Shown here in pieces: positions 40,912 to 64,000 of a stretch of DNA of 64,000 nucleotides. A program made the translations under genes and the position numbers. The DNA comes from Amoebophrya sp. A120 (Eukaryota > Protista > Dinoflagellata). The DNA lies in NCBI GenBank assembly GCA_905178155.1, contig CAJINV010000001.1, positions 12,763,686 to 12,827,685 on the forward strand, written 5' to 3'. Under the pieces are notes generated by a model. It worked only from the letters and a program-made list of their open reading frames with translations. It searched no databases and was not told the DNA's origin. Position 1 is the first letter of the stretch. Each line of letters begins with the position of its first letter.

Positions 40912-41328
40912 TGAAACACGACCAAAATCTGGGCAGGCTCTTTAGGTCTGACCTTGCTGCAGTGCCGAGAATGGCAGAAAACATACGAGGCATTTGCCAA
41001 TAACGATAGAGGGCTCTCGCAGAGCTGTTTGGGCTACGTCCTCGCCGCCAAGATGAGCCGGAAAGGGCAGGCACACATCCGCAAATCTTGCGGGCTACTA
41101 GACGAAACAAGCACATACAACAAGACCAAGAGATGAAAGTAAGTAAGCTGGCGCAACGCCACTCCCTCCTTCGCTTGTTTCAACACGTCCAGCCGTGGTG
41201 TCTGTGCCAATGCCAGTCGGCACACGAATGGAGGAGGCAAGGACGAAACCGAAACGCCGGCCCGTCGAATATCACAGATGCCTCAAGAACTAAGTACCCC
41301 TATCTCGTGGCAGAAGCAATGCAATTTC

Positions 41329-42917: not shown

Positions 42918-42922
42918 AACCA

Positions 42923-44016
42923 TATGCACTGCAACCACATCAATGCCAGGGACAGCTTGAATTCAAGGCCTTTCTGTTTTTTTCAACGGGGGAGGCGGCA
43001 GACTACCATCTCCCTATGGCTCGGGATCGGCAACAACATGGCTGCATGAGCGAAAAAACGGGCCGTTGACTGCATGAGCGAAAAAACGAAACTGGCTGCA
43101 GTTTGTCTCAGCTCTGTCCCGGTATGCTCACGAAATACCCAATCAAGGGCGTGACGCTCACCACCCTAACGCGTGCGTCCCAGCGCGCGCTGGAAATGCA
43201 AATGGAGCTGCACACGAGAATAGGCCTGAAGCGAAGAGGCTTGAAGAGAAATTGGGAAACTCTAAATGGAACATACGAGAACGTCTCAATTTCCGCCGTG
43301 CTGCTACACCACGGCGCAAATGCATACACTCTTCAAGCCTAATAGTGCAGCAGAGAACTTTCTTTTGCCGCTTGCTCAACATGCGCGGGAAATTCGCCAA
43401 AAACTTTAATCACACGCACTTGGCCGCAATCGCCCGCCCTGCCTGGCTTTCACTGAGAAGTGCCCGGCGGGCCCGGTAATCCGAACTGGGGGCGCGGGCG
43501 GCTGGGTGCGTGCGAGAACCCCTGCGGCGCACCACGTCTTTCCATGTACTTACTTATGTAAACGAGGTGTTGGGCCGGGGTCGCCGCACGCCGGAAATAA
43601 GCTCGAAACCCGGCATCACGAATCCGCACAGAGGCTATCTTCCACCCTGCGCTGGCGATAGGGCGATGCCACTACAAAAAATAGAAAGGAGCTCCCCACA
43701 GAGCGGCCCATAGCCATAGTCTCGGGACACCTTTGTCGCCTATTGATAATAAATCTGCTGAGCAGATGGACAGCTTCAGGGCTGTCTGGTGCGCCGCCAA
43801 TACGTGGGGTTCAGGGCGCCCCCACACACCCAGGTCCGGACACCGACACGCCATGCACAAGAAGAAAATAAGTAGCAAAAAAAGCTTTCGGCGCGCTGCC
43901 TTTTGCCTTCACAGTGAGCAGTTTAGTATGTACAGCACGTCCCGCTATCAAAAGAAGAAGCGACACGAGGGTCCACGCCTCTTCCCCGACCCTGACATCA
44001 TTCGTGGCAGTTGATA
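42923..44016. mobile_element. 1.09-kb TAT...ATA introner in the Cys-motif gene
   Basis: TATGCACTGCAACCACATCAATGCC / rc TATCAACTGCCACGAATGATGTC. Removal + 5 nt fuses two ORFs in frame and completes a domain: HPLLGLCLIRRC...DGPAFHLPRAECFAPSMFF. Flanks are diverged. Confidence 0.7.
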
Positions 44017-45787
44017 GAAACGCTGGACCGTCTTGTGCGCGTCGGTACAAGGGAGCAAATTTGTTGCTGTTTTGTTCCTCTTCCGGCAGCGACTGCAGGA
44101 GTCCACATCTTCTGATGAGACACAGACCCAAAAGTGGGTGCGTCTTGAAGAGCGTGACCAGCCACCTCTTATCTGCGCCGGGGTTGTTGTCTGAGACAAA
44201 AGCGTGGCACTGATTTTCGTCCATCAAGAAACTTCGCAAGTACTCATTCTTCGTTCCGGGAGCTCCCTGCTCCCACAAGTGCTCGCTCAGCAATCGAACG
44301 CTGAAGGTCCTTTGGCCCAGCCATACGTCTAGGTCCTTTCGTCGCGGTAGTCTTTCTTTGTATTGCTTATCAAAAGCGATTGTTTCTACTACGCGACCAT
44401 GTTCTCCATCTGCTTCACGAGCAAGCCGCGATTGTTGAATTGCATTCCAGCGCGCATTTAGTCGACTCGCTAAAGACCAGCTATCTAGAACTCGATCCAC
44501 CGCTCTGTGAAAGTCTCCAAGCTTATAGCGAAGGAAGCCCGGGGCATCAAGAATTGCGCTGTCGATGAAAGATATTTGCGGTAGTAAGACGCCCCGTAGT
44601 TCCTCTGCCACGCCAAGTCCCCTGTCCTCGAACAAGTGGTTCCGCAGGTGGGAGATGATTGGCAGTTTTTGAATCAGAGCTTCGGCGCTTTCGCTTTGTT
44701 CCGTTTTCTCGCCACTTGCGGAATCAGGACCACAGATTTGGCCCAGGAGGTGTGCTTGCTGCGTCTTGTCCTCTGCGTTGATGTCTTGTGTCTTGTGACG
44801 CTCAATTTCGTGCTCCAGGTGTCCCTTCCAGTCGAAGACGTCTCGCAAAAAACGACCAACCACCTTGCGTGCTTCCCCAGGAACCGCAGCCAGCCGATGC
44901 AGTGGGGGCTGCTGTTGACGAACAGCATCAACATCATCTGGCAGCCCTGGGAAACGTTCAAGGCTTTGATAAACTCTTTGGCTCCACAGGGTGTGTAGTT
45001 TGTGTGGCACAACGTCCTCGTCGGCGTCAAAACCGGGTTTGTCGTCGAGGGAAAAGACGGGTTTACTTTTTAGAAGCCGAAAGTCTGCCGCGTAAGCTGT
45101 GTCTTGAACTTGATGTGCCTGAACTTCACTTACACCTCCGCGCTGCACTTTGATTTCCTTTTCCTCTGAGAGGTCACTGAGCACAGCGTTAATATCTTTG
45201 ATGCGAACTTCCAGCGCGGTCACTTGCTTAGCCCATTTCGCACCGAGTGCGTCACAATGCTCACGGTAGCTTTGCCAATCTTCGAGCAGACCCGTCATCG
45301 TTTTGCAGACTACTTGCTCAGTCCGCCGCAGTACAACATCATACCCATTTGGCTGTCTTGACACCGGCTCCAAACCCGGAGTTGTAAATACTGTTTCGTC
45401 AATGCTGAGGATAGCCATCCGGAGTCGGTGTCGTAAATTCTCTGTTTCGGTATTCCTGTCGTGGATCAGCGAGCTCCTCAAGCTGGTGATTAGGGGCATG
45501 CCTTGCATTACGGTAATGTCGTTCTGAAGCAGCTTCTGTACTAGATCTTGATCAGGTGCATTGCCGGGTTCATTTCTGCTTGCAGTCGAAAGCCGATTGC
45601 GAAGCTGCGATGTCTCTCCTACCAGACTGTCTGTCTCTGGTTCTCCACTGTTGATGAGAGGCTGCAATGCTGTTCCAGGTATCATCACGAGTTCCGACAA
45701 TGGTTTGTTGACCCGGTCGTCGTTACCGTAACTCTGCGTGAGCTTCAGGAACAGATACCCTGCGTTCAATTTCGTCTTGCTCATGGA
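44017..45787 (-). CDS. Cys-motif repeat protein segment
   Basis: Begins with the domain tail NAGYLFLKL and ends with the domain head NQCHAF..FKTHPLLGLCLIRRC. A phase-0 GT-AG intron 45788-46672 could link it to the upstream ORF. Confidence 0.7.
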
Positions 45788-46672
45788 CTGAAAAAGCCAG
45801 GAAACAAAGAGGCGGCTGAGAGAGTCAGGATAGTGTGACTAATATGCTGCTTACGCCTCCTAGCGAATGCAAAAACGATGTCGATGGCTTGTACTTGTCG
45901 CTTCTATCAAAAAATAAATAGTGGCAAAGAAATCCGCCATTGTATTGCAATCCAGAACAATCCGTGAAAAGCAAAAGCCCACATTTGAATCGGCAGCTGA
46001 TGCGGTTGCGGATTGAGTTGTAAGTAGTGTGAACTTGATGTTGTTCCTGTTCGGTTTCGGGAGGACTCACTAAAGGAGCTCTGCCAAATTTTGCATGAGC
46101 TAAAACCTCGCCACACGTTCTGTACATCTAGTACTTACAGACTGAAAAAGAAGCAGGCAGGGAACGCTTCGACGAATTTTCAATGTGCGTCTACGCTAGA
46201 GAAGAGCAGTGACTCCACAACTACGGTGAAGTTTGTATTATTTATTTGGCGCGATGAGCTCAACAGCGCCAAGCAATCTATCGCAATTTAGCAGCCCTCG
46301 GGCTCATCATCAGCGTTTTAGTTGCTCCCACGACGATGATAATGGATTACAGATGACCAATTTTGGCGTGCAGTCCATTTCATCGTAGAGACCGGGCGCT
46401 TTTGGCATGCTAGTAGGGAACGGCCACAGCCTGAGAGTGAGGCCATTGCCTAATATTAAACATTGCTCTTTTCTGCTGCTGCTGGTTGTTTTTTGCATTC
46501 TTTTAGACGCACGCACTGTGGTGCTGAATTCAAATTTATTGCGCTTTTCTGATTTTCATTCTTAGTACTTCTTTGCATATTTTTATGGTAAATACAGACA
46601 TGTCTGGAAGGTGAAGACTATGACGCCTCTCTCAGGCCGACACTTGTAAGACCCAAGCATCCTCATCATAAC

Positions 46673-48161
46673 ATCTCTGGCTCCGAGGTTGCGGGTAAAA
46701 AAGTTTTTTGGTTTCAAACAGGAGTCCACGGTTATCCGATCCTGAATGGTGGTGCTGGCTTCTGGTTCTGATTTTGCCGGAGGCTGGCACTCAAAGGACG
46801 TTGTAAGGCACAACCGAAGGTCCTGATGCTCACTGAAGATCTCACTGCGCAGTAAGGACTCACAGTTGTTTTTCAGATCTTTGATGACCGCGTTCGCGTT
46901 GTATACATCCTCTGCAACCAGCTTATTGAAAGAATCTTGAAGCTGGACAGCTCTATTGCTTGGTGCGGTCGTGGCCACCTGGCTTTCCGGTGATGAAGCA
47001 GGCGCCAGGTGGAGCTGCTGTGTAACCGCCACCGCAGCTTGTTTATTTGGCGACAGGGACAGAAGCTGCAGTTTCAGAGTTTCGCGCGGAATACTGCCTG
47101 GTCCCGTGTGCGCGTTCACGACCTTCGCAATCTCAGAAATTTGGTGATCGATCAAAGGCTTAGCCGCTCTCAGATATTCCTCGTGCTCCAATTGCTTTTT
47201 TTTTTGCTCTTTAGTTAGCTCCTCTATCAAAGTTCCTTGCCGCTTCACTTTTGCCACTACCGTGCGAACGTCTTTCCCTTGAAATCCCTTCCGAACCTCG
47301 TCCATTATGTATTCATAGCGATTCGGTTTCCCGGGGCCGCCGTACTTTTCAGGCATTTTCTCAAGTTCGTCGAGGTTGAAGCACAACCGTTTGTGCTCGG
47401 CATTTGGATCCTCTTCGAGATCAGGAAGCGCCCACTCCTCGCCGCCATACCGTATTCTATCGTTGAGGTCCTGGACCGCATATTTCGACCACTCTTCGTC
47501 TCCGTAGTTTTTCCTGTTGTCAAACCAACGCTTCCAGTTTACTTGTGACCTGTGTCTCAAATATATGGTCGCGGCAAGCTGCCGTTGTTCCTCCTTGTTT
47601 TTTCTCGATGCAAAAGCATCGTCTGCTCCGATGACAAGTTCAACTGCAAGTAGGAAATTCATTGGTTCGAGTACAGGGTCGTCGCCACCGCCAGAGGTCG
47701 TCATCTTGCTTTTGTCGCCAGTTGTGAAAAAATTCTCTGGCTTGAAGCAGCGGAGGTCATCTCGATCCTGGCTTTCTTGGTACTTCGTTGTCCCTTTCTC
47801 GTACTTCGTTGTCCCCTTCAGAACAGTGCTCGTGGCCAGCATCTGGCCCTCCTTGGTCTGGCATACGGTGGCGACAAGGCAGTCGCGGACTCGTTGGTGG
47901 TGGTGTGCAATAGGGTCCGCATCGTCCTTCAGCCGAAGCCACAGCGGTGTGCCGTCACTGCCACCTTCCGCTTCGACGCGGTCAGCTGGAAGCACATCTG
48001 CGCCACCTTCCAACAAAGGACAGTGGGTAGCATCTCGCAAAAAGTTAACAGCCACAGGGCCCTGATTGGTTGGGGTGAGGCCCTCCCAGCGTTGCCCTTG
48101 CACGGGTGTGAAGATGAGTTCTCGAAAAGCATGTAGCTGCGCCAACTGTAATGCTCCTTTT
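46673..48161 (-). CDS. Cys-motif repeat protein segment (2 domain copies)
   Basis: HQRVRDCLVATVC..CFKPENFF; NCESLL..HQDLRLCLTTSFEC..CLKPKNFF. Confidence 0.75.
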
Positions 48162-48166
48162 CGGGC

Positions 48167-49391
48167 TATGCATTGCAAATATGTCTTTATGCAGGTCAGA
48201 GTAAAAAATAAAAAATTGTCATGCCAAGAAACAGACCGCGCTAGCTAGGGCTAGGACTACCGCTTCCAGGCCGGGGGTGCGGGTGGTAAAAAAGGATCCA
48301 TGGCTTGCACCACGGAATGCACAAGCACAACCTCTATCGTAATCCTAAAAAACAGGAGCGCAACACACGACTTTGCGTTTGCGTCCCCCGGATGGACGCT
48401 CATCAGGGCGAAATAGAATCGCATGAAACTGTGATGGTGTCCTTTTGCAAACGGCCGCAGATGGTTTTCCTTTTCGCGACCGGAAAATGAAATAGGCGGA
48501 CGCCGAAGCGCCATTGCTATCGTAATCCGTCAACATCTCCCGGCGACTGAAGTGGCTTTTTCTTGTCAGCCGCCACTTTTGTGTGCCGATCTATTTTTTT
48601 TTTCGAGCTCAGTCTCGTTCTCGGACTAGCATCTGTGTGGGCGGATTCCAGAGTGGAAAAAGGTCATCCAAGGTGCCCCTACGAAACTTACTTCGCTATT
48701 TTCTATCGTACTTCATCTTCGTCTACTAGGTAAAGAAAATGTAAATCATACTGATTGTATTTGTATTTGTACGTGGGCCAAGAAAAAATGCAAAAGCGTC
48801 CACAATCATAACCATTAACCTAAGTATAGTACTCCGAAAGAAGTTTTTCTAATAATATAATTATTTTGCTTTACCTTTATCCGCCCCCCCGGGCTACCAA
48901 TACTTAGCGTAGCGTCCACAATCATAACCATTAACCTAAGTATAGTACTCCGAAAGAAGTTTTTCTAATAATATAATTATTTTGCTTTACCTTTATCCGC
49001 CCCCCCGGGCTACCAATACTTAGCGTTAGCACATACGTTTACGTCTGTACTGAGAAATAGAGATAAAGTCCCCGCCAGTAACATTTGCCATGCGTGTACC
49101 GTAGGACGCAGGACGAGGACCACACGAAATTCCTTACACCCGCATCACCACCAGAGTGAAACAAATCCGCAACAGTTTCTGGGATGCAGCGTACGACGTT
49201 CACGTTCTCATGCCAAAAGTGAATGAGTTTGAGTCTGAAAACGAAACTAAAAGAGGTAAGTAACGTGCTCTGCTCTCATGCCGTACAAGCACTCTAGCTG
49301 CATGCAATCCAATGCAAGAAAAAGAATGAGCGGACACAAATCTTTCGCATTTTTTGTCCCGACCTGCTCCGTGACACATTTGCAGTGGATA
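48167..49391. mobile_element. 1.2-kb TAT...ATA introner (family-1-like ends)
   Basis: TATGCATTGCAAATATGTCTTTATGCAGG / rc TATCCACTGCAAATGTGTCACGGAGCAGG; flanks cgggc/tgtgc. Removal + 5 nt joins ORF 49247-49603 to ORF 46583-48178 in frame (KRALPIAQKGALQL). Confidence 0.8.
48795..49026. repeat. Perfect 116-bp tandem duplication
   Basis: The unit AGCGTCCACAATCATAACC...TACTTAGCGT starts at 48795 and again at 48911. Confidence 0.95.
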
Positions 49392-49581
49392 TGTGCTATA
49401 GGCAGAGCCCGCTTCAGCGCGAATACACGGCTCGTTTCGTCTCGTAAGCCGCCCCCGACTGGAGCAATGTAATAGTCTCCGTATTTAAGTTCTGTGGTCA
49501 TCCTATTTTCGTCGAAATGAACGAAACTACGCAAAATAGTTGCCCACTTCGTCTCAGGTTCGTGTGTCAGGGATGGACGCA
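49392..49581 (-). CDS. Short internal exon of the Cys-motif gene
   Basis: RPSLTHEPETKW...KRALPIA, linked in frame across the 48167-49391 element; 5' boundary tentative. Confidence 0.5.
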
Positions 49582-50714
49582 TTCGATATGAAGAGCGTGC
49601 CACAACTTATCCTGTGCGAATTGAGAATTTGACACTATGCTTATGCTGCTTGTCAATATCATCATGATACTCATCAACAATCTTAGCGACCTCCATGTCC
49701 TCGTTGAAGCCCCGAGACGTTCCTGGATTGTTTTTATCCCATCACGCCCAAGCTCTAGAACTAGAATGAAAAGCGAGGGCGCCAAAGGAGAGGCATGCAT
49801 GACTACGTGACTGATTCCATGCCTTCGTCTTTAAAACGAAGGCACTCCTAACGATCAGGACATCGCCAAGCGCCAGCCCGCGGTGCTGATAACAATCCAC
49901 TTTAATTATACAAATAGAACTCCACTTTATACAAATAGAACGAGGCAACCAGATCAAACTGCGTGCTTGCGTCTCTTCTGACCGCCACGCGGATGATAAT
50001 ACCACCACACGTCGTGTGGCAAATCAAGACAAGATGCCGCCCGCTAACTCGAACGCCCTCCTCCTCCGGTCGAGCAAGGCTCTTTTTTTGTGGCGCCACC
50101 GCCAGGGTTTTTTTTTCTGACTGCCACGCGAGCCTCGCAAGGAAGAAGCGACCGAGCCCCGAGCCTGTCGTTGCCGTTGATGCGATTCAGTTTCAGATAT
50201 GGCCGCCGGTAGAGCGATCTACTCGCTCACACGCGGACATGCAGTTTGATTTTGTTACCTCACTCGCAGAACCTCCAAAGGGCACTTTGACATGTCGCAT
50301 GGCCAAGCAATGGCTTCGAAGTGCATCGCGCATGAGATTCATGTTTTTCGTCTTTGCCCTCCATTGTTCTGTTCGCATTTGCATTTCTAATTTCTTTATT
50401 TGCAAGCTCTCTGCGTTTGCACAAGTGCTTGGATAATTTCTGGCGTCCTTGGGCTGTTTTTGATCTGATTTTTAACATGAAAAATCTATAAAATAGATAC
50501 TAATATAATATTTTGCGTTTGCCACCCTGAACGCCCCGTATTTGCAGGAGTCGCGCGACAGCTTGGCCATATTTTTTCCCGACGTAGTGCCAAAGCTCTT
50601 CACACATGAAGCAGCCTTTACATTTCTGAAGCATAAGCCTGTGTATACATAGATTGACTTTAGCACCAATCTGCCAAATGTGAATATCAACAGGACAACT
50701 CAGGGCACGTCTTC

Positions 50715-51797
50715 TCATTGAGATAGGAAGTCTTTCTCGTCTTGGCGGTGTTGCGGGAACGCCGTTGCCGCACGTCGTGCCACTCCGCTGACTATGTCGA
50801 AAAAGAGCACTCCAGAGATCATTTTGACAGTTTGTAGCCCAGGACCGCTTAGTTCAGGAACGCTTTTTGCCATATGATCGGATATCGCAAAAAAGTTCGC
50901 CGGCCGAAAGCAAGAAGGTGCGACACGCTCTTTCCCAGAAGTAGATGAAGCAGCGGTTGACAGCTGTGAGCTTGATTCGCTTTGCGTCTCTGCTTCTTCT
51001 GTGTTTGTCAGTCTGGGATCGCTGCAGAAGGAATCGAACAGACATTTTTTCACTTCCGGATGCTCACGAAATGCTGAATTTTCTCCACCAATGAATTCAC
51101 ATTGTTCCTTGTTCTCGTTCGCGAGGTAATCGAAGACAGGATTAGCTTCGGCTTCGTTTTCTCCTCCGTTAACAAGAGACGAGAACACCAGCCTCACAAA
51201 GTGCAAAGCATGGCGGCTATAGCTCCACGAACTCTTTATCCACTGCGGAGTCATCTTCATGGACCGCTGCCCTACTCCTCTGGATTCCTGGCCCGGCCAA
51301 ACAAGAGGCAAAATTTCGTCGGGTGAAACCAATGCGCAATAATCCACACTGTCGTGTAGTTCATCATCGCCGTCTGCCTTCCTCGGCTTCGACCCGTCCT
51401 CGTGAAAGATGATCAGTTGCATCACAAAGACATTCTGCACGGTTTTGGAAGACTCCCCCGAATACGGCGTTGTTCTTCCCGGCATAAAGCGTCCGTTCTT
51501 TTCTTCGTAAATTCTATCGAAGTCTTTCCAGAGAACGTACTCCGAGATGATGCCCTCTGTGGGTTGTAGTTGATTATGATAGTCGTCCGGCCGTGCATCT
51601 TTATCTTCTCGACGCGATGCATCCCGGTGCTTCAGTCTCTGCAAGGCTCTCTTCACCGAAATATTTTTTGCTCTTTGAAAATAATCCAAACAAAGTTCTT
51701 GAGTCTTATTTTTGTCCTTCTTGAGTCTTTTTGTCCGCATCGGGTCGTGCCGCTCAAGCAACTGAAGACATAATTTTTGGTAGCCCTCCTCCGTCAT
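50715..51797 (-). CDS. Cys-motif repeat protein segment (1 domain copy)
   Basis: EQCEFI..FREHPEVKKCLFDSFC..SCFRPANFF..ISGVLFFDI. The frame stays open to ~51880. Confidence 0.7.
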   Translation of the reverse strand: MTEEGYQKLCLQLLERHDPMRTKRLKKDKNKTQELCLDYFQRAKNISVKRALQRLKHRDASRREDKDARPDDYHNQLQPTEGIISEYVLWKDFDRIYEEKNGRFMPGRTTPYSGESSKTVQNVFVMQLIIFHEDGSKPRKADGDDELHDSVDYCALVSPDEILPLVWPGQESRGVGQRSMKMTPQWIKSSWSYSRHALHFVRLVFSSLVNGGENEAEANPVFDYLANENKEQCEFIGGENSAFREHPEVKKCLFDSFCSDPRLTNTEEAETQSESSSQLSTAASSTSGKERVAPSCFRPANFFAISDHMAKSVPELSGPGLQTVKMISGVLFFDIVSGVARRAATAFPQHRQDEKDFLSQ

Positions 51798-52206
51798 TCC
51801 TTCAACCAGGCCATATCGGTCGGGGTATGCTTCAAAGTCGTTGAAGAGATTTGTAGAACGGTAAAAAAAGAGTGATCTTCATCATGATCATCTTGCGTCG
51901 AACGATTTAATAAACTGAATTGCGGCACGTCGAGGTAACACCGCCGGTTTCACATCCTCCTCAAGCATATCGCAGATTTTACCTTGCAGCAAGTTGCAAA
52001 ATTAGTAGCAAGCATTATGCTTCAGCTTCTTTTCTTCAGATGACCACGCCGGTTGTCTTTATTGCTATTCACAAACACTGACGTAGATCGATCTGAATTT
52101 GGTTTGATCTACGCACCGGGCTATAGTGTTTGACTGTCTCGGCATGCACAATGGCAAAAACACGAAGCATCTCGATATCCAAAGACAGTGAAAAATGAGA
52201 TATCAC

Positions 52207-53295
52207 TCATTTCCGTTCCATAGGTTGTGATAGGCTCAGCGGACGTGACGCCTCCGAGTCCCATTGCAGCGTCTCTCCAGGTTCGGCAGGCAGAGGCAAT
52301 CCCTGAATAACAGCACTTCTTTCATTAGCATCCTCCGGGTGTTTTCCAGAAGCAGTGTCTTTGGAAGCCTGCTTCTTGTTGGCGTTGAAGGAATCAATAG
52401 CACTAGCACCAAAACGAGCACCTAACGAGGGGATCGCACGGTTGACGAGCACTGTCCAATGCAGATTCTTGACGAAGATGTCATTTTCGCCGGTCGTCGC
52501 TTTCGTGATCGCATTTACGATGTTGTCTTCTAGTGTTAGCTCCTCTGCAAAAATTGTTGCGGCTTCGAATTGTTTTCGTGGGTCTTTGTCTGCGCTCCAT
52601 CCTGCACTCGGGGCTTTGGCCTGCGCAGATACTGCTTTTGTTAGTGCCTCACGACCAGCCGACATCACACTGTTGGCGAGAGATTTCGCTACCAGTGTCC
52701 TTTCCGATAAAATTTGACTTACTTTGTCAAACATTTCAGAAGTCTTCTGCTCGATCTTTGTTCGGAAATGGGAGGACAACGCGACTTGAATAGCGAGTTC
52801 GATAGCGGCATAGCGTTCGAATGGCTTAGACTTCAATTTCTCGGACAGACTATTCAGAAATTTTGCAGCCTCCTTCTCGGAGAGCTTCCGTATCTTGGGA
52901 ATTATATTGGCGTAGAAGAAATCGTGGTCGGTCTCCTGGGTCACGCGTTGACTTTCCTCCAGCACAGAACCTGTGCCATCGTCTAGCTGCTGTTGATAGA
53001 GATGGAAAGACTCTTTCACAGCCAATGTCAGGGATGACGCGAAGGGCAAGGCCAGGTTACTCCGGACAAAACGGATCCAATAGTCCGTGAGCTGCAAGAG
53101 TGAGATGCTTGGCCCTGTGTTTTGTCCGCGGGGCGCTGAGGCGGACACGGCACGCACAGGCTCCAGCAGGGAAGATGGTGTTGAAGAAGGTCTCCATGGT
53201 ACGAGCGCTTTGCTGGGGTCGCTTGCACCCACCTGTCGGCTCTTCTTCATCATGAAAAGCGCTTTCACACGATACTCAGATAGTCCCAAAGACAT
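52207..53295 (-). CDS. Hypothetical protein
   Basis: 362-aa ATG-started ORF with plausible helical composition, co-oriented with all other genes; no motif recognised. Confidence 0.45.
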   Translation of the reverse strand: MSLGLSEYRVKALFMMKKSRQVGASDPSKALVPWRPSSTPSSLLEPVRAVSASAPRGQNTGPSISLLQLTDYWIRFVRSNLALPFASSLTLAVKESFHLYQQQLDDGTGSVLEESQRVTQETDHDFFYANIIPKIRKLSEKEAAKFLNSLSEKLKSKPFERYAAIELAIQVALSSHFRTKIEQKTSEMFDKVSQILSERTLVAKSLANSVMSAGREALTKAVSAQAKAPSAGWSADKDPRKQFEAATIFAEELTLEDNIVNAITKATTGENDIFVKNLHWTVLVNRAIPSLGARFGASAIDSFNANKKQASKDTASGKHPEDANERSAVIQGLPLPAEPGETLQWDSEASRPLSLSQPMERK

Positions 53296-56200
53296 GACGC
53301 ATTGCTGGAACGCAAAACGGCAAACGCAACACGCTTCGTGATGATGTCGATTCAGACTTTATTCGCAGAGTAAAGGACAAAGTTGTGCTCGGGATGAACG
53401 CTCGCTGTTGCTAATTGATGCAGGTCTTTTGTGTTTATTTGATCATGGACATACATCAAGATGATTTGGATTTAGGTAGAGAAACGAGCAAGGCTGTTGT
53501 TGTCAAGATGATGGTGCCTTCGACTCAATGCAGGCAACTTCAAGTTGTAATCCAAGCATCAACATATTAGCCGCAAACGAGCACTAAGTCACGATCTTCG
53601 ACATCACAGCGGGAATTTCGGACGTACATCTGTACTGAGAAGTACTTCTTCAAGCTGACGCTGCTGCTCTCTGTAATACCACATGTCTACCAGCAATGCC
53701 AAGGTTGGACTCGATTTTGATTTTTGGGCTGCTCAACCAGCAACCTAAACCTACGGATCAATCATGCATACATCGCGCGGTGCAATCGACTTCGACGTAT
53801 GGTGTGACAACGTTTTGTATTTGCATACTGCGCAAACGCTGCAACACGTCGTCCGAGTTGCTGCTTGGTATGTCGTCCTGGCTTTGCGCGCTCAGCTTTT
53901 CACCTTGTGTGTCCTTCGTTTCCGCGCTGGCGTCACGCGCCGCAGGCTTTGGATCCACGCCTGCTTCTTCCTTATCCTTATTTTTTTTCCGTCTTGCTTT
54001 CGTGCTCGTCCTCTGCTTCCTTGACTTGCGGTTTTTCGTCTGCTGCTTTTTTACTTTCCGTGCTTGTTTCTTCTTTCGCTTAACCTTTTGCCGATGTTGC
54101 ATGAAGACGACTTGGGAGGGTAAATCGTTCGGTCCACTGCATATGCAAGAGAAAGAATCAAGACAGAGGTCATCTATAATGTCCCTTTCTATGCCCTCAA
54201 TATGGCAGTATTAGTTTCTTGCGGATCTGCACTCCTTATCACTGTTGCTGTTCTGTCGTTTGTTTCATAAAAATAAATTAAAATTTGCGGAACAGGAGTC
54301 AGGGTGTTTATATATTTTCTTAGTGTATCGCTTTGTGTTTGTAAAATCCCGCAGGAGAGCGAGAGCCACAGTTTCGTCTAGCACTACTCAGGCAATTGCG
54401 GAGTGCTAGCAACTAGAACATGCGTTGTAGTTCCGCTGATGATACTACTTACATGCAAAACGAGGACCGTCAAACGCTGGAGAGAGATGAAACGCGAGAG
54501 AGTAGTACACAGCTATTAGCGCATCTACTATGCAAACGTGGTAACTAGATGTGGATGTCACAATTGCCGCGGGTCCGGCGTGGATATTGTTTATGTACTA
54601 GAAGTGCCCAGGAAAAGAGTGTCGAAAGGGAGCCTATAGAAAACTTGAGCTTTTTTCTTTTTGTTTTCCGCTGCATAACAATTCCCCCGTCCTCAAAATC
54701 TTCATCGTAGTCGAAGTCTGAGGGTATGAAAGTGCAAAAGAGGCAGGCTCTAAATTGTGTTCCTCTTTGTTTTTACACGCAAAGTTATGTTTTTCTTGCA
54801 AAACGCCGCGAAAATATGGTCTGCCGTTTTAAGTGTACAAGTTGAATACTTTCTTACATATGATTTGAGCATCTGCGCATACCGCACCCGACGTTTACGA
54901 AAAGTCCAGACAGAAGTACGCTCCAGATCTTGAAGTTGAAATAACGCTTCAAAAATCGCTTGTTATCAAGAATTATACAAGCACAAAGATTCCAAACGAC
55001 GTAGCTTGGAGCGTCCTAATCGTGAGTGCTTACATTGCCCAAGGATAACATACATAAGACTTTTTTGGGGAAAAGAAAGACGAAGAGGTAAGAGCAACGT
55101 TTTTGCGCTTTCGTAACAAAATCTTGCTTCACTCCGTGGTAGGCACTGGCCACGGGTGGCCCGCATTCCCACAGGACCTCCGGCGACAACACCGACCAGT
55201 AGATCATGTGCATGACTTTCCGTCGCATCTTGGGTGCAAGAAGCGCCTCCAGACTCGACATCTTCAGGTCCAGACACGTGACGGTTGGTTCCGGTAGTGA
55301 TGACCCACCTGAGGAGGAGAAACTTTTGATGCCTCGGCTCTGCCACAACCTGTCGAGATAGGTTGGAGTCGAAGTCGTGCGTAACGTGCACTTGTATTTT
55401 CTTTTTTTAAACACCCATACCTACAGCTGCTCCTAACAAACAGATGACTCGTCGTTGTCGGTACACGTAAGTACACGTACATATTAAGTTACTTAATTTT
55501 TTCTAAAAAGGGTCCTCATGCTGGACATCTACTTTTGCAGACACGCAAAAGATGTGCGTTTGTTCTTATTTGGTGCGTTCAAGGATGAATTAATCCAGGA
55601 GAGGCAGCTAGTCGAATGCAGAGGATGTTGTAGAAGTCGACGGTAGGGTGATCGTGATGAAAAGGCTTTTAGATCATATAACTAAAGCTTGTTCTTTGCA
55701 AGAATATAAAGGTTTTCAGGAGATAGTCCAATATACCTGCCTTTCGCAAGAAATCCAGAAAAACCGGCGGCGCAATTAAATTTGAAAAAGGCCCTTCTCT
55801 TTATTTTACTGGTTGATAAAGCTGCCCGTGCTTGCTTCCTTCAAACTTAGTTCACTCTCTTCACCTGTCCTTGGATCTCAACACGGCCGTCGTGACAAGA
55901 ATATCGCTCCGGAACGAGCTTGCGCGGCGCAGCCGAGCTTGATACCCAGAAATGTCGGTCGAGGGCGGGGGAGTGCTCGGTTTTACTGGAAGTCGTTCCG
56001 CACCAGAAATCGGTTTTCAATGAGATTGAAAACGAAGCCTTTTTGTGTTGATTTAGCCAACTCACATGCGGGTCATAAAAGAGAAGGAAAGTAGAGCACC
56101 GTCGCATTTCTTTTTCTATGGTAGGTAGCGGTGAACGATAACCATAACTCACCCAAAAAAAAAACTTGACAAAAGATACCTCCGCGCTCGGGTTCCTCGC

Positions 56201-58592
56201 CTCTTCGAAACACAGCACTCGGGAAAAGTGCCGCCGCGTCCACGGGTGCAAAGGAAACCTTCTTGAAGGGCACCAACGCTTGCGTTTAGCCCCGTTTAAA
56301 TTGATTTCCGTACGCTCTTGTCGACGGGGAAACTTTTCCGGGACGACGCAACCCTGGAGATGCGGTCGAAACTCGGTCCTGGATCAGGGGAAATCCGAAC
56401 ACGAGATGTCCGCTGCTGCTGGGGTGTTTGGCAAACAAAGTGAGGTGAGACTGAGAGCAATTTTTTTTTTTGGTAAGTAAGAAAATTGTGGGTTTAGATT
56501 GGAAAGTCGTCGAGAATCTTGGAAAGAAATTGATGTGGTGGTAAACAAGTGCGCAGCACGATCTGCCCAGGTGGGAGGGCTTCACGTAAGCAATTGCTAC
56601 CGATACAAACTATGCTTAAAGGGGGTGGCCTTGTAGCACCGTTGCATCAACTGCGTTTTTTTCTTGTGAGTGTTCCCTTTAGGTTTCGCAAAGTAGATGC
56701 CAACGAAAAAAGAGCTCGAGCTATGTCTACTTTCTTTAGTACGTCGAAATGCAGTTAGTATTGTCATGAGCTTCGTACTGCACCTGCAGCAAGAAACGAA
56801 AGTAGGGTGCGCAGTTCCTAGTCAACATACTGTATTGCACGAGGGAGGACGACGAGACAGATGCCACAGGCTCAATGGACGAAAGGCAATTTGGACGACC
56901 GAAGACGTGATAGGGTCGTATGTACTACATGTCAATGTGAATGTATCACAGAGAGACACGCCATGAACGAGCGTTTGTGAATGTCTCACACAGAGACACG
57001 CCACAAACTCATACATCAGACTTCCACGTTTCCGATACCATCTGGAGCTCATGAGCGACGATGTAATCTAATTGAACGGCGAGGACCACGACAGAGACAG
57101 ACACACATCTTGTGCACAACAATTCAACCGAAAAGAGCAAGCAATAGCCAGCTAGTAGGCCAAGCAAACAGATTCATATGACACGCACCATTAAACGCTT
57201 TCGACTTACAACTCTCAAACCGAGCTTTTAACACGTTCCAAACGAAATTCAACACATCAAGATGGCGACTTTCACCAAAGACGACGAGGAGGGACCGACA
57301 CAGAAGCGAGAATCTCAATCAGAAGACAACCGAACAAGAATGAACATACGGCCAGACACCGAAACAGTGGCACAGTTCTACGAGCGTAGAAAGAGAAACA
57401 AAACATGGCCACTGTAAGTTGCATTATCTTATGCAGTGGGTAGAACCTAAATGAAAGAATTATGTGATGCTATGGCTTTCTTGTCTAGAATCTGATGCGA
57501 AAGCGTGAAACCAAAACAGTACATCCATCTACCGCCAAATTTTGTTCATCACATGTCGTGTCGTGTGCAAATAACGCTTCACATATAAACGTTCTAACAA
57601 CGAGAAGATGAACTGCCAACTGTCGACTCGCGGTCTTCCTCTCATTATGCAGGTCCCCATGTGAATGTTCAACTTCAAAATCCATATGTGTCAGCCGACT
57701 ATGTTTTCTCGCTTTAGTTTTTTGATACCATCCTCGATTTCTGATTTTTCACAAAATAGGTAATTGTCACAGATGCTGTTGGTGCTTCTTTTCGCAAGAA
57801 CGTATACGTAATGTCTGTAATCTTCGGCAATAAAAATGTTGAACAAACGCAACAAATCGAAAAGACTAATTCAATACTCGTCGAGTAAATCATACATTTA
57901 TTAACTTGTTTCATTGACCCTGAGTCTGAGATCCGTGTTCGGAGGGATGAGAATTTCATAGCATTTTTTAAGAAGTTTCAGGAAGTACTACGACGGTGTG
58001 GCTATTGTCGTAATCTTGTTGATTCAGATTCTACATTTATAAAGCTGAGACGCAATGGCACCACCTCCACACATGGTAGACAAGCAAAGTGCCTTCGCTA
58101 AAAGTAAAAACACCTGTTCCTGTAGCAAATATAGTAAAATAAAAATATGTCATTGGTTTCACAACTTTTCGTAAATAGAGTTCAACACGCTTTGAGAGGC
58201 GACTTTCAGCATCCCCGCATGGTCCGACGATCCATCAGGCATTATGGAAGACAAACCTCAAACTCTGTTCCATTATCACCATGCATATCGCGCAGTGTCG
58301 GGACGCCAGCCGGAGGGCTGCGCACACTTTTCGTCCGTGTTTGCTTTCATGTCATCTTGCTCTCTTGATGAAATTGAATTCTAAACTCCAGTTTTTCTTG
58401 CTGCATTTACACGGTTCTCGATTACGAAGTTCACCAGGTAGATAGTGAAAGCTCCATCCCTGCATCGCGACGCAAATCCGACGCAACTCATAGGTTGCAT
58501 CTATGAGCAATGAAGACTCGGACGAGCACGACCGTGCCTTTGCACCTTATACAGCGAAAAGAAGTTACATACCATTTGCATTTCTCCTTCTA

Positions 58593-61500
58593 CTACATTA
58601 ACATTGCTATCGGACGGAGTTTGTCATATTCGTCCCCAGGGATAACCGCTGTTCCAGCTTGATGGCTACCAGTCGCAACTACCGCTGAAGTAGCAGTCTT
58701 CTCCGACGTCGCGTGAAAATCGGCATTCGCTACTTTTCCTCCCGGCATTGTCATCGAAAAGCGCCACAATCGCGTGTCGTTTTGGGCGGTTTCAGCTCGG
58801 AGGTCTTCGACCGAATAGAAGCTGTCTATCGCGTTCTCAACTGTTACACTCTCAACTGTTGACGCAAGAATGGCAAAAGTGAAAGCGGGGACCTTATTGT
58901 GGCGCGTCTTGCATGGCAGATTTGGCACAGATTATCAGCCTGTTTGGCCCTTCGAGGATTTGTCATGCTTAACAGGCTGCGCGGCTGAAGCCCGGGGGGG
59001 GTGCGGGGTCCGCAGGCTTTGTCATGCAAAACAACTTGATCGCGTCGATTTTTGACGATAATTTCGCATGACAAATCACGTAACCATTGAAGATGTAACG
59101 TTTGAGATGAATCCCATACTGTCCGACTCCAGGAGCTCTTCGAAGAGGAATTCCCCAGCAACCTTCATCGACACAAGTTGGTGCCCGTCGAACAGCATGG
59201 CCTGTCCGCATGTATGAAACTGAAATAACAGTCTTCTACTTCTTTTGAAAAACCAGAGCAGACGCGAATGAACTTGTTTGCTAAATGTCAAGGGAACAAG
59301 CACAAAAAAAGCTTGCTCTGGACGGCATCAACGGGGAGAAAAAGAAATCAATCTGACTGGGTTTTTCATTCGACAGTCGTGTAGTAGTGAAGAACTATTT
59401 TCAAATTGATAGCTTTCGACGTAGCAAAGCTCCGATTTTCGCACGGCAATTTCCGTCCCGCAGACGGCGTGGACTTCCTCCTTCACCGTACTGAAAAGCC
59501 CGCGCGCCTCTTCGTCTGACATCGGTGGCGTCGTTACGAGCTTTTTCACGCGGCTCAGGAAACGCTCTTCGCCCTGATTTTTTAGTTTTTTCTCGGTGTT
59601 TTTCAGTTATTTCCTGGAGGACAAATTAACAACACGAAACTAGCAGCAGACGATGCTGGTGGGTGGAGGCCGTGCCCGATTCGGTTCACTAAAGCGTATT
59701 TTCGGACAAAGGATCAAGAACGGAACCACAGAAGCACACTCAGAAACGGGGATCATCAACAACCGAAAAGTCAAGGTCAAGCTAAAGGTTTTACATTCAT
59801 ATTCCAGGCTGTAACGGACTCGGACACGTCGACGTGCGGATTGTCGTAGGTGCGGTAGTACTCTGAGGAGTGGTTTTATCCCACGAAAAAACTGTTTCAC
59901 TGTGATGATTTTGCAAGATTTGCATTTGCATTACACATGACAAAGACAACTTGGCATGCGTGTGTGGCAAGATAAACACATTTGCGCTCCGTTCTATACA
60001 TCACAAGTTTACAGTGAAACAGTTTTTTCTTGCGATAGGTTTGCCAGCAGCGCCGCGTTGCCCGCTACCAGCTCCTGGAAGTCCCCTCGCTCCAGCGCCC
60101 ACAAGACAGCGGTTTCGCTCGTCAAATAGCAAGTTGCCTGCCGCGGGGTACCATAGATGAGAGAGAGCTCCCCAAAGAAGTCGCCTTCCTGCAACCGTGC
60201 GACGACGTGGCCCTTTCAGTATCAAATTCAAAAATAGTGCTCGCCCCACTCCAAAGGTGGTATGGTTCGTTGTGCCCAATGGTGCCAAGAATCTGTTTGT
60301 GCTTGATGTTTTGCGTGAAAAATATTTGTATTGCATTTTCCTACTAGTCCGAAGCAGTAGAAGGCTTGTTGTTCCGATCAAGATTGAACCCCGATTGACA
60401 ACCACAAGCACGCCTGAGTAAAACCATTGGAGTGGCGGAGCACCTTTTTTGAATGGGATATGCGTTCGACTTTCACCTCCCCGGACTCGATCAGATACAT
60501 GCAGTCGGTGTCTTTCAGAAGCGATTCTGGTATGGGAGCAAAAAATGTTTCTCAAATTCCGTCTTAACAACTTGCCGTGCGGGTGCGTATTTTCCTGATG
60601 CAATGCTTATTTTCCGGTATGCCGAGTGCGGGGGCACAGCACGACAATTTTTCATGCTTTTACTTTCCCGAAACGTAGAATTTGCTTGGGATGCAAGATC
60701 TCAACGTCACGAAAAAAAACGACTACTGAAGTATACTTACCAGTACTTTGACTTCTCAACTTACACATCTGACCATTGTACTGAAAGAAAGACGTGTCTC
60801 TGCATGCTTGTGAAATGCTTCTTTTACATCAAGTACTTACTGCGAAGACGAGACAACACTTTTCGGTTCCGTATCTTGTTCCTTGCCTCGGTCTGCATTC
60901 AATCCACCCGCTGATCCAGGAGCCACGCCATCGTTCACGAGCAGCTCCGCACCTTCACCTTCTTCCAGCAGACGCATGTTCATGCCCGGCTGCGTGGCCT
61001 TCTTGACGCGCTGGAACCGCGTGGCCAGCTCCGCTCGGTCCGCGTCACTCAGATGTCGAAACACCCAGGTACGCTGCAGCATCATTTTCAGCCGCAGTTT
61101 GGACGCGCGTTCGGAGACGGTCTTGCCCACTCCCATGGCCGCAGAACTACTTCCGGTAATGCCGTCGGCATCGTCCTCGTCGGAGATCATTTTCTTGGCA
61201 CCACCTTTTGCACTGAGGTCATCAACAACATCTGGGTCGTTGCTCTGGAGCAGCGTTGGCGCTTCGTGCGCTGCCCGTGGCCCCCCGGCGACTTGTTCCT
61301 CGGTGCTGGCGCCGGCCCCGCGCGCCAAGTCCGTGATGTTGTTATCTACAACGTTATTCATGCTAGTTGTGCCGTTTGCGGTGCTGCTGCTGGATCCCGC
61401 GGCCGCTTTGTGGTAGGGATTGCGGAAAAACTCGGGTTTCGAGTTTACGTCGGGGTTATTGCCGAGGAACTTGTCGAACGCATCGTAAACGTATGAAAGT

Positions 61501-63398
61501 GGAAAATGCTCCGTCACCCCTACTGCAGAACAAATGCAATCATGACAAAGCCAAGAATGCTCCCACGGCCGTTGCCTCTTCGCAAAAAAGTAGTCTAGTT
61601 ATGTATCTGTCTCTTGCATGACAACAAGCTTCAGCACCCGGATCGGCAAGTGGATCCATGCATGAAGTAAACGTAGACGTAGGCACACCTACACTTCCGC
61701 CGATTCTAATAAAATATTTCCTCTGCTACTGCTAGATGAAGTTCTGCCTCCGTTTCTACTGAGGGGGAGTTCGTGTGCATCAAGCTCATAAGTCGATCTT
61801 CCACAGCAAGCCACCACCGATTGTCGACGAAGACCCGCTGCTGTTGCCGGCTGCCGGTGTGGCGAGCTTCACTGTCGCTTGTCTTGTCAACCCGAACACC
61901 ATCCCGAGTTCGCCGAAGATATCCCCTTTCCGCAGGGTATTCACCAATTCCTCGCCTTGCAAACACTCGAAGACGCCCGCCTCAATCAAGTACAGCCCGG
62001 CGTCCTGGCCGAGGCTGTCACCCTCCTCCACGATAGTCGTTGCAGTATGTGTTTCTACTTCAGAGGTGGGAGCAACAACCTCCACCCGCTGCAACGTGCG
62101 CACCAGGGCCTTCAGATCGTCCTCTGCGAGGTACTTGAAGCACCAACTGTGGTCCTTCAGCATCTGCGCCAGGTAGGCGCGCTCCTCCTCGATCTCCAGG
62201 TCGGCGATCTTGCGCTGCTTATCGCGAGAAAAAACTGTTTCACTGTAAACTTGTGATGCAGAAAATGGATCGCAGAAGTGTGTGTCATGCTACACATGCA
62301 AGACAGTGGATTTCTAGCTGTGTTTTCCCTTAGGAACCCCGCATGGCAAATTTCCGCTGTCATGTGAAACAAACTTGTGATGCAAAACTTGTAACATCCT
62401 TACAGTGAAACACTTTTTTCGTACGATACTGCTGGTAGATGCGGTAGTAGATGCTCGAGTGCTTTTGAATCAGGCTGTCGTTGCTGCCAATCAGCTCATC
62501 GAACGCGTCGCGGGACAGCTTCCACACTTTTACGACGGAGCTGCTGGGGTAGCAGGACGCCTGGTTTATGATAGATAATGGTACAATGAGGTGCATAGTC
62601 AGAATCTCAATCCTCCAACTTTCTCAGCATCATGTTCATGCTCGACATCTGCACAAACATGACCTTGTTGAAAACGAAAAACGTTTTTTGGTTCAGAACC
62701 TTCTCATGCACAAACAGGAACAGCGAAAATGAGCAGTCGCGGTCCTGCTGATCATCTACTTCCGTCCTAGTATCTCAGTAATGTACGAGGAGGCTGACGG
62801 ATGAACTGCCTTTGTTCTTTCATCATGTCATTTTGATTCATCGCACTGGCAATTTGCAGCTTGTGAACAGCGCAGTATACAAAGAAGACCGATCTTGCGC
62901 TTTCTAGATCAGAACAGAGGCACAACAACTCCTGTCGGCACTATTTGTAAGTACCTGCCGCGGGAGGTCATAGACGAAGGCGAGCTCGCCGAACATATCA
63001 CCGGCGGACAGAGAGCGCACGACTTTGTCGTCGATTTCCACAGCCACAGTGCCGCTTTCGATGACATACATGTAATCGTTGACCGCACTGCTATCGCCCT
63101 CCTTCAGGATGTACTGCTTGTTACCACTACCACTTCCGCTGCTGGTCGCGCCGCTATTCGATGCGAGCGATGCAGAATTGTTCTTGTTGTCCCCATCCTG
63201 TTGCTTCTGTGCAAGTTGCTCCAGCTGTGCGGGCGTGAAGGATGACGAGGGGGCGGCTGTGGCCTTGATTTCTTCTTTTTCGAACCGGAACAGCAAATCG
63301 CGGAAGGCATCCTTCTCTAGGTGCTGAAACACCCACAACCTCTTCAACAGGTTCCGCAGCTGCCGACGCTCCTCGTCGAAAAGCGACTGGTCCGTCAT
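58593..63398 (-). CDS. Cyclic-nucleotide-binding protein with four CNB domains (last degenerate); 10 exons, 7 introners
   Basis: MYVIESG..GDMFGELAFVYDLPRQAS; LYLIEAG..GDIFGELGMVFGLTRQAT; MYLIESG..GDFFGELSLIYGTPRQAT; CYVESG..GEFLFEE. GT-AG introns at 62561-62954 and 59574-59794, plus seven TAT...ATA introns. Confidence 0.85.
58827..59118. mobile_element. TAT...ATA introner in the CNB gene
   Basis: TATCGCGTTCTCAACTGTTACA / rc TATGGGATTCATCTCAAACGTTACA; perfect CTGTC flanks; gives LESDSFYSV. Confidence 0.85.
59213..59411. mobile_element. TAT...ATA introner in the CNB gene
   Basis: TATGAAACTGAAATAACAGTCTTC / rc TATCAATTTGAAAATAGTTCTTC; flanks gcatg/gcttt; gives CYVESGQAML. Confidence 0.85.
59877..60037. 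mobile_element. TAT...ATA introner (TIR family 2) in the CNB gene
   Basis: TATCCCACGAAAAAACTGTTTCACTGT / rc TATCGCAAGAAAAAACTGTTTCACTGT; perfect GGTTT flanks; gives LANHSSEYYR, paralogous to QKHSSIYYR in domain 1. Confidence 0.95.
60220..60460. mobile_element. TAT...ATA introner in the CNB gene
   Basis: TATCAAATTCAAAAATAGTGCTC / rc TATCCCATTCAAAAAAGGTGCTC; flanks diverged (ttcag/tgcgt); gives EVKVERKGHVVARLQEGDFFGE. Confidence 0.85.
60531..60873. mobile_element. TAT/TAC-ended introner in the CNB gene
   Basis: TATGGGAGCAAAAAATGTTTCTC / rc TACGGAACCGAAAAGTGTTGTCTC; flanks tctgg/tcttg; gives GKEQESLLKDTDCMYLIESG. Confidence 0.8.
61492..61790. mobile_element. Degenerate TAT...ATA introner in the CNB gene
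   Basis: Only TATGA of the TIR remains; flanks aaacg/agtcg; removal + 5 nt gives LWKIDYDAFDKFL (CNB W.LD...F motif). Confidence 0.7.
62220..62428. mobile_element. TAT...ATA introner (TIR family 2) in the CNB gene
   Basis: TATCGCGAGAAAAAACTGTTTCACTGTAA / rc TATCGTACGAAAAAAGTGTTTCACTGTAA; perfect CTGCT flanks; gives YRIYQQRKIADLEIEEE. Confidence 0.95.
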
Positions 63399-63552
63399 TT
63401 TTGAGTATCCGAATGAAACAAAGAGCCCCCTGGCCCCTAGAAAGACAAACGAGGATAAAACTGTAAGCCAGTTTACAGCTTGAGCAACTGTTAATTCCTT
63501 GGGCGCGTAAGTTGTTGGTATGGTGCTTGTATTTGGTGTTAGCAAAACCGAT

Positions 63553-63653
63553 TTCGTTGTGGCTTCCGGCGATTTCTCAAAATCGAATTCGTTGTGGCTT
63601 CCGGCGATTTCTCAAAATCGAATTCGTTGTGGCTTCCGGCGATTTCTCAAAAT
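63553..63653. repeat. 35-bp tandem repeat, ~3 copies
   Basis: TTCGTTGTGGCTTCCGGCGATTTCTCAAAATCGAA at 63553, 63588 and 63623 (last copy partial). Confidence 0.95.
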
Positions 63654-63741
63654 GAACGAGGGCAACGATATCGCACTAAAAAAAGGCCCGAGAACGCGGG
63701 CTCGAGCCGATTTGCTCAGCCGCGCCCCCACCGGTCCGCGG

Positions 63742-63918
63742 CCGCGATCTCGGGCCTGGTTGGTTTCCGTTTCGTTGTTTGGGGGCCTTAACCCGCCGCC
63801 CTGAAACTGCGATTTTGCGGAAAACACGGCCCGCGTTTTCTGCGAAGTCGCAGATTCAGGTCGGCGGGTTAAGGCCCCCAAACAACGAAACGGAAACCAA
63901 ACAGGCCCGAGATCGCGG
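63742..63918. repeat. Long near-perfect palindrome (~85-bp arms)
   Basis: CCGCGATCTCGGGCCTG..GGTTTCCGTTTCGTTGTTTGGGGGCCTTAACCCGCCG pairs with CGGCGGGTTAAGGCCCCCAAACAACGAAACGGAAACC..CAGGCCCGAGATCGCGG; centre near 63830. Confidence 0.9.
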
Positions 63919-64000
63919 TCTCGCGCCGATTTGGTCGCCCTCCCCAACCCAACCCGGCGCATGACCCAACCCCACGACTCCCCGACCCAGCTCGGGGTGC

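Follow-up and report, generated by a model that had tools for sequence, protein, structure and literature searches.

The introners of Amoebophrya sp. A120 in the window analyzed here (64,000 nucleotides [nt]; assembly GCA_905178155.1, contig CAJINV010000001.1, positions 12,763,686 to 12,827,685) are removed from the messenger RNA (mRNA) at one fixed register, N-TAT...ATA-N4, with the 5' cut one base 5' of TAT and the 3' cut four bases 3' of ATA. It was further concluded that they are likely removed by a relaxed major spliceosome, with a predicted hairpin of the intron ends as the ruler (probability about 0.55). The window elements are the published A120 introners (Farhat et al. 2021; PMC7789003), with TAT-type inverted repeats and a 5-base-pair (bp) duplication, and the element class is already known. 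The available text of that article describes an inverted repeat that opens with TAT, followed by seven variable bases and then a run of A, within direct repeats of 3 to 5 nt. It reports about 65% of A120 introns as noncanonical and leaves their boundaries and splicing mechanism open, seeing "no clear splicing signature" and calling the borders "unknown" and the position of the splice sites with respect to the hairpin "variable." Three window exons are 100% identical to proteins labeled Amoebophrya sp. A120, namely, P0001, a homologue of glycerol-3-phosphate dehydrogenase; P0121, a protein of 1497 amino acids (aa) with five cyclic-nucleotide-binding stretches (Pfam PF00027); and P0123, an unnamed protein of 994 aa.

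The major data were splice joints in assembled contigs from runs X3, X4, and X5, which share a sample, and X7, from another sample of the same study, aligned to 44001-64000 and 15701-35700. The runs carry no RNA label, and their RNA nature is a guess; the contigs act as transcripts in that GT-AG introns are skipped in them. The DNA-like run X1 was continuous through 17391-32906 and 32986-34852 with no difference; this comparison covers the 15701-35700 stretch. In total, 31 joints were used (15 listed for 44001-64000, 13 of the 15 listed for 15701-35700, 2 from contig pieces, and 1 from a loose end), 11 of which were GT-AG and 20 non-GT-AG. All joint counts are among the joints listed; at least 4 more exist for 44001-64000 and at least 17 more for 15701-35700. 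Joints 32907-33751 and 32909-34980 (side 20), present in the DNA-like run, were excluded as repeat-to-repeat artifacts, and the pair 49575-50799 was excluded because its pieces came from different records. Intron calling by motif only was dropped owing to many false pairs. An "old" intron is one whose duplication has decayed.

The register was deduced from the offset k, the number of bases between the 5' cut and the downstream TAT. All 20 non-GT-AG joints were compatible with k=1, compared to 11 with k=0, 13 with k=2, 8 with k=3, and none with k<0, and no joint required an offset other than k=1. Two to six equal placements were found for 16 joints, while the other four (45778, 54138, 54721, and 58239) had a single placement, at k=1. 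Exactly one placement with T at +2 and A at +3 existed in 20/20 joints (chance, ~1e-15), and T+2 A+3 served to choose among equal placements. At the nine joints where k=0 was excluded, the letter in the RNA was in every case (9/9) the fifth letter of the downstream copy, which also disposed of RNA editing as the origin of k=1. In the mRNA, the first four letters come from the upstream copy and the fifth comes from the downstream one; splicing takes out one duplicated base at the 5' end and four at the 3' end, which restores the mRNA exactly. P0001 and P0121 show 0 differences under k=1, while k=0 alters T530 and A614 of P0001 and changes A1472 of P0121 to V. Two more introners from annotated P0123, 22203-22548 and 21718-21980, fit the rule, the latter with A at +4 and A-7 kept. 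The orthologue residues at GPD2 positions 530 and 614 were variable and gave no decision on k, and a drift of +1 to T (5/9 diverged, none to G) was set aside for too few cases.

The 20 introners, all on the minus strand, are given below, followed by two canonical introns and their host gene.

58239-58645, minus strand: old introner in the P0121 gene, 407 nt, ends TT..GC, k=1 only; seen in X3, X5, and X7, and at P0121 A1472.
58823-59119, minus strand: introner, 297 nt, perfect GACAG duplication, ends GT..CA; contig joint.
59209-59412, minus strand: introner, 204 nt, ends CT..TG, flanks AAAGC/CATGC, k 0-2; joint 59207-59412 in X3, X5, and X7.
59873-60038, minus strand: young introner, 166 nt, perfect AAACC duplication, family of 62216-62429 in opposite orientation; contig joint.
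60216-60461, minus strand: introner, 246 nt, ends AT..GA, flanks ACGCA/CTGAA, k 0-1; joint 60214-60461.
60527-60874, minus strand: introner, 348 nt, 5' arm TAC, ends AT..AG, flanks CAAGA/CCAGA; contig joint.
61488-61791, minus strand: introner, 304 nt, ends TT..TT, flanks CGACT/CGTTT, k 0-1; joint 61486-61791.
62216-62429, minus strand: young introner, 214 nt, perfect AGCAG duplication, ends GT..CA; contig joint.
54721-55116, minus strand: old introner, ends TT..CT, k=1 only, 5' arm TAC, duplication 0/5; contig joint.
54138-54678, minus strand: old introner, ends TT..CA, k=1 only, duplication 0/5; contig joint.
53241-53828, minus strand: old introner, ends GT..GA, 3' triplet AAG replacing ATA; contig joint.
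51848-52223, minus strand: old introner, k 1-2, 3' triplet ACA; contig pieces.
49577-50726, minus strand: old introner, 1150 nt, k 0-1, 3' triplet AAT; contig pieces.
48163-49392, minus strand: introner (the GCCCG element), 1230 nt, k 1-2, k=0 excluded; contig joint.
45778-46671, minus strand: old introner, 894 nt, k=1 only, 3' triplet ATG; contig joint.
42919-44017, minus strand: introner (the TGGTT element), 1099 nt, k 1-2, k=0 excluded; contig loose end at 44018.
34821-35088, minus strand: young high-copy introner in the P0001 gene, perfect CTTCC duplication; contig joint.
33549-33789, minus strand: introner, k 0-3, flanks GTTGA/GCTGA; contig joint.
33269-33446, minus strand: introner, flanks CGACT/CGACA, k=0 excluded; contig joint and P0001 T530.
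32875-33016, minus strand: introner, flanks CGCGA/CGCGG, k=0 excluded; contig joint and P0001 A614.
59574-59794, minus strand: canonical GT-AG intron, 221 nt, GTA donor, A-rich 3' end; contig joint.
62561-62954, minus strand: canonical GT-AG intron, 394 nt; contig joint.
58159-63401, minus strand: 3' part of the P0121 host gene, covering the final 813 of the 1497 aa; with k=1 its translation shows 0 differences from P0121.

A legend in PMC7789003 describes cuts that vary within the repeat, in which case k=1 would be merely the commonest product. Rare variants would be lost in contigs, and the published inverted repeats lie 1 to 5 nt from the annotated splice sites (PMC7789003, available text). 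This is nevertheless considered very improbable, since none of the 20 joints needs another offset and the published spread is the alignment ambiguity expected in a 5-bp repeat, as seen in the 2 to 6 placements of 16/20 joints.

The original prediction had placed introns at 59213-59411, 60220-60460, and 61492-61790 on the minus strand. They were found there with the flanks described, and all three are skipped in contigs of X3, X5, and X7. Its argument that keeping the whole downstream 5-mer harms the protein was borne out by a stop at 60216, a change of E-S to A-C at 59209, and a change of D to V at 61488. It was also correct that the 3' cut lies at a set distance from the inverted repeat (k=1 fits 20/20) and that no acceptor dinucleotide is needed, as all four bases occur at -4..-1 and AG ends only 1/20 non-GT-AG introns. 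Its cut just before TAT and five nucleotides after ATA was off by one base: k=0 fits 11/20 joints only, and it fails at four (CGCGG, CGACA, TGGTT, and GCCCG) of the 14 elements on which it was built, of which 12 have a listed joint, TGGTT is from the loose end, and CGCAG is from an annotated protein only. The three showcase introns allow k 0-2, 0-1, and 0-1 and cannot separate k=0 from k=1. Retention of the upstream copy held for the first four letters, while the fifth proved intronic and the fifth downstream letter exonic. Contig joints at unequal flanks gave the single cut that had been anticipated, at k=1 instead of the position proposed. The last A had been expected to form a Stentor-like branch point at -6. 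It lies instead at -5, with a different base there in 3/20 introners, and -6 is T in 17/20, so the TA-N5 geometry does not hold for these introns. The expected enrichment of C after ATA did not emerge, the intronic letter being C in 3/10 diverged pairs and C occurring in 8/20 at that position. The model of a cut before TAT with a branch at -6 fits its three showcase introns and 11/20 joints; excluded at 9/20 joints, 4 of them in its own list, and contradicting three annotated residues, it is refuted as a general rule and has next to no chance of being correct.

A tie to the spliceosome is suggested by the end sequences. At the 5' end of the 20 introners, +1 is free (A5 C6 G3 T6), T+2 and A+3 are present in 20/20, +5 is C or G in 20/20, and A is found at +12..+14 in 16, 16, and 15 of 20; +2..+4 is TAT in 18/20 and TAC in 2/20. 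At the 3' end, A-7 is present in 20/20, T-6 and A-5 each in 17/20, and C or G at -8 in 19/20, and a T tract occupies -15..-19 (T-16 in 19/20); A is found at -6 in 2/20. Lengths range from 142 to 1230 nt. Features of U2-type introns are scarce among these introners, with G+1 in only 3/20 and a 3' AG in only 1/20 (T+2, 20/20); mixed ends were GT..NN in 3/20 and NT..AG in 1/20. GTA, however, starts 10/11 GT-AG introns of the same genes, placing T and A at the same +2/+3. These introns end in CAG in 11/11 after an A-rich stretch and have A at -7 in 8/11 (P = 0.002, one of four positions tested), and the annotated GT-AG intron 21445-21650 carries ATA at -7..-5. Three spliced introners (triplets ATG, AAT, and AAG) have lost the final A of ATA without any shift of the cut, while A-7, the sole invariant 3' base, is kept when its partner +4 changes. 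The A at -7, the first of ATA, is the likeliest branch nucleotide if there is any, and as such is a candidate only.

Table S4 of PMC7789003, in the part available, lists nine top A120 noncanonical classes of the type NT-NN (5' GT, CT, AT, or TT) and nine top A25 classes that are all TT-NN, the A25 repeats beginning TTA. All 18 classes therefore have T at +2, a point unremarked in the available text. Two lineages whose repeats differ thus place T at +2. According to the same source, U2, U4, U5, and U6 were found in A120 and U1 RNA was not, U1 proteins are listed in Table S6, and the same repeat layout occurs in 15% of canonical A120 introns. Amoebophrya sp. ex Karlodinium is reported to have mostly GT-AG introns and a U1; this contrast fits, without proving, a link between the change in U1 and the non-GT-AG introns. 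Rfam gave 0 matches.

Two observations concern the ordinary introns themselves. In eight GT-AG introns (24095, 25754, 26114, 27210, 31974, 34280, 59574, and 62561) there is no pyrimidine tract, and an A-rich stretch resembling CTAA/CGAA immediately precedes CAG, as though branch site and acceptor had been fused; introns 29760, 32541, and 35377 end in a pyrimidine-richer stretch. The annotated intron 21718-21980, absent from the contig joints used, starts GTAAG, has no AG, and ends ATA-N4, and is possibly an intermediate between an introner and an ordinary intron.

The same register could also arise outside the spliceosome if an endonuclease and a ligase cut the hairpin, as proposed for the nonconventional introns of euglenids and diplonemids, ATA being then only the end of the stem. 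Such a route would agree with the freedom of both terminal dinucleotides, the intron-specific pairing retained in old introns (below), the U1 RNA not found in A120 (PMC7789003), and the Euglena nonconventional introns with paired ends at fixed offsets, which are reported to leave as circles. It is considered somewhat unlikely because T+2 A+3 falls in the GT-AG donor register in both A120 and, from the TTA motif and the available part of Table S4, A25; because +2/+3 stay fixed while their partners -5/-6 change (6/40), a constancy that pairing by itself would not require, with the caveat that +2/+3 were used in the choice of placement; and because the repeat layout is also found in 15% of canonical A120 introns.

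The predicted end hairpin looks to be under selection. Pairing at the family-variable positions +5..+11 was found at 83/140 in the junction-defined offset and at 22 to 41/140 in nine other offsets. In the nine introns with a duplication of 2/5 or less, own-arm pairing was 35/63 compared to 22.1 for swapped arms (reached in 0/5000 shuffles), and in young introners it was 35/56; there was no trend of pairing with duplication identity (Spearman 0.14, P = 0.56). The GT-AG control showed no excess, with 25/77 compared to 22.2 swapped (P = 0.25). The pairing thus outlasts the duplication, and since arms under no constraint would be expected to diverge no more slowly than the flank letters within the intron, selection on pairing would be indicated. 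The original prediction had treated the end of the repeat as a linear signal; the retained intron-specific pairing points to a structural ruler instead. Two pairs of family members in opposite orientation (59873/62216 and 32875/33549) are all spliced, as a symmetric repeat predicts.

A linear ruler was also weighed, in which the spliceosome would branch at A-7 (or A-5) and count the 3' cut from it, the hairpin being a transposon relic. A-7 is indeed present in 20/20 introners and 8/11 GT-AG introns, the T tract at -15..-19 could be read as sequence, and several old introns fold weakly at their ends. The pairing at variable positions, however, is steady as the duplication decays, and two neutral arms should lose pairing faster than one neutral flank copy. 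We therefore regard a purely linear ruler as improbable.

For the preferred reading, a relaxed major spliceosome with the hairpin as ruler, the following sequence of events is proposed. A transposase making 5-bp duplications would insert the element. In the transcript, the hairpin (+2..+16 with -5..-19, leaving a 1-nt 5' and a 4-nt 3' overhang) would juxtapose the ends and set the cut sites, standing in for recognition by U1 and of AG, and would then be unwound for catalysis. A spliceosome with U2, U4, U5, and U6 would read U+2 A+3 and branch near the 3' end, with A-7 likeliest. Since no demand is made on the target sequence, an element inserted anywhere in an exon, whichever its orientation, would function as an intron. 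A more specific version can be put forward only tentatively: that the spliceosome lacks U1 RNA and has dropped G+1 and AG, so that for most introns the transposon hairpin sets both cuts with A-7 as an internal branch. Equally tentative is its corollary, in which one symmetric repeat would supply both a donor arm and a branch-plus-ruler arm, in either orientation and at any target, with the TA register also in A25.

Several points weigh against the spliceosomal reading. The route and the branch are inferred. The joints come from contigs assembled for two samples of a single study and represent the majority form only; many are flagged "between: not known," three of the nine joints that exclude k=0 (45778, 48163, and 58239) being unflagged; and the annotated proteins may share RNA data with the contigs and were not counted as independent. 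In whole-intron folds, the +2..+4 pairs all had a probability below 0.15 in 5/16 introns, two old introns came no higher than 7th and 8th among 20 when ranked by the duplex energy of their own arms, and a stem over +2..+4 would block donor and branch pairing unless unwound. Selection could also drive the decay by which introns were classed as old. The invariance of A-7 (changed in 0/20, with -5/-6 changed in 6/40) is not significant (P = 0.17), the context of -7 is a poor match to the branch consensus (-9 is T in 6/20), and in GT-AG introns A is equally frequent at -6 and -7 (8/11 each). At +5, T is found in 7/11 GT-AG introns, compared to C or G in 20/20 introners. Finally, preferences of the aligner may have shaped the classes in Table S4. 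A pooled contrast of 0/60 with 8/60 (P = 0.006) was post hoc and partly circular and was not relied on.

The transposon origin was supported by the families. The elements have terminal inverted repeats and a fixed-length duplication of arbitrary sequence, a trait of miniature inverted-repeat transposable elements and other transposons with terminal inverted repeats. One family (59873/62216) was found by its repeat in 83 metagenome stretches with 78 complete copies, in which the duplication was a perfect 5 bp in 57, 4/5 in 17, 3/5 in 3, and 2/5 in 1. The 5-nt repeat of the original prediction is therefore real; none of the 78 copies had a 6-bp duplication, and base use in the duplication was flat, with no target preference. 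In the window, the duplication was 4-5/5 in 8/20 introns. An oriented flank-mutation test on the 78 metagenome copies was dropped, the coding model orienting only 14/20 controls correctly. None of 10 frames in or beside long introns of the window had a Pfam match, and no transposase was found among them.

Other observations on these elements are as follows. At least 78 copies of the 59873/62216 family are present in one metagenome assembly, with no locus sharing a long flank with the window, and L067 is the only one of L001-L083 with a changed terminal triplet. The family of 34821-35088 is very abundant, with a DNA-run depth in the tens of thousands compared to ~43 for single copy (summed contig depths, not copy number). 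At 15790-17421 (minus strand) there is a 1632-nt element with a 24/25 terminal inverted repeat, a perfect CCACC duplication, and internal 119-nt tandem and inverted repeats; four frames within or next to it gave no Pfam match. Transcript-like contigs break off at 17421 and resume elsewhere, as if the element were spliced. At 63402-64000 lies the 3' end of an intron running off the window, with ATA at 63408-63406 and a contig loose end at 63402; it contains a 35-nt unit repeated three times in tandem and, at 63722-63938, a near-palindrome of 217 nt.

Elsewhere in the window, 4044-6701 (minus strand) is an 884-aa frame with a weak match to DNA N6/N4 methylase (PF01555, E value 4e-06). The region 39241-42939 (minus strand) contains two long frames, of 566 and 536 aa, in which internal segments are duplicated ~2.15 kilobases apart; neither had a Pfam match, and the first had no match among 50%-identity representatives. 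A long-exon search against representative proteins found 0 proteins.

The findings were compared to known systems from the available parts of the respective articles. The A120 and A25 introners of PMC7789003 share the organism label, TAT repeats, direct repeats, non-GT-AG ends, families, and a proposed hairpin; the repeats are 3 to 5 nt there, compared to an exact 5-bp duplication with N-TAT...ATA-N4 here, and "lariat" or branch point is not mentioned in its available text, whereas here a donor-register TA, an invariant A-7, and evidence for selection on pairing are described. The introners of algae and other dinoflagellates (Gozashti et al. 2022; PMC9860276) are likewise nonautonomous inverted-repeat elements, spliced as the insertion plus one duplication length with mRNA length kept, but the ones described carry splice sites or co-opt them from the target, while those of A120 need no G, AG, or target motif. 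The nonconventional introns of euglenids and diplonemids (PMC11170887, PMC12621601) also lack GT-AG and have paired ends at fixed offsets, direct repeats, and a suspected transposon origin. Their Euglena consensus, CCAGG at +3..+7 with CCTG at -9..-6, is not found here, where TAT is at +2..+4, ATA at -7..-5, and TA in the donor register; circular excision products are reported in euglenids. In Fritillaria (PMC13326754), most introns escape GT-AG and a U2-type spliceosome is kept, as proposed here, but U1 is conserved, the available text has no mention of a hairpin or inverted repeat, and the pattern according to Farhat et al. is AG-A(N). Stentor introns (PMC9505925) also have a conserved A at a fixed distance near the 3' end. 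They are 15 to 16 nt long with GT-AG ends and a sequence-assigned putative branch A with a 5-nt tail (-6), in contrast to 142 to 1230 nt, free ends, and T at -6 here. A fixed register or branch point for these introns was not stated in the open literature found, subscription journals not being covered. The register, its agreement with the donor register in both strains, and the indication that the hairpin is selected appear to be new, although figures of PMC7789003 (Fig. 3, S14-S25) may already show the register.

A single register turns the "highly variable splice sites" into one rule and allows tens of thousands of junctions to be reannotated. It also gives the exact nucleotides for tests, namely, +2, +3, -7, and the stem pairs. 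It explains the free invasion of exons, since the element and exactly five duplicated bases are removed, whatever they are and in both orientations. Contacts of G+1 with G-1 and of AG are usually held to be necessary for splicing catalysis. If removal of the introners is spliceosomal, catalysis would proceed without these contacts; if it is not, a second structure-guided splicing route, outside Euglenozoa, would be indicated.

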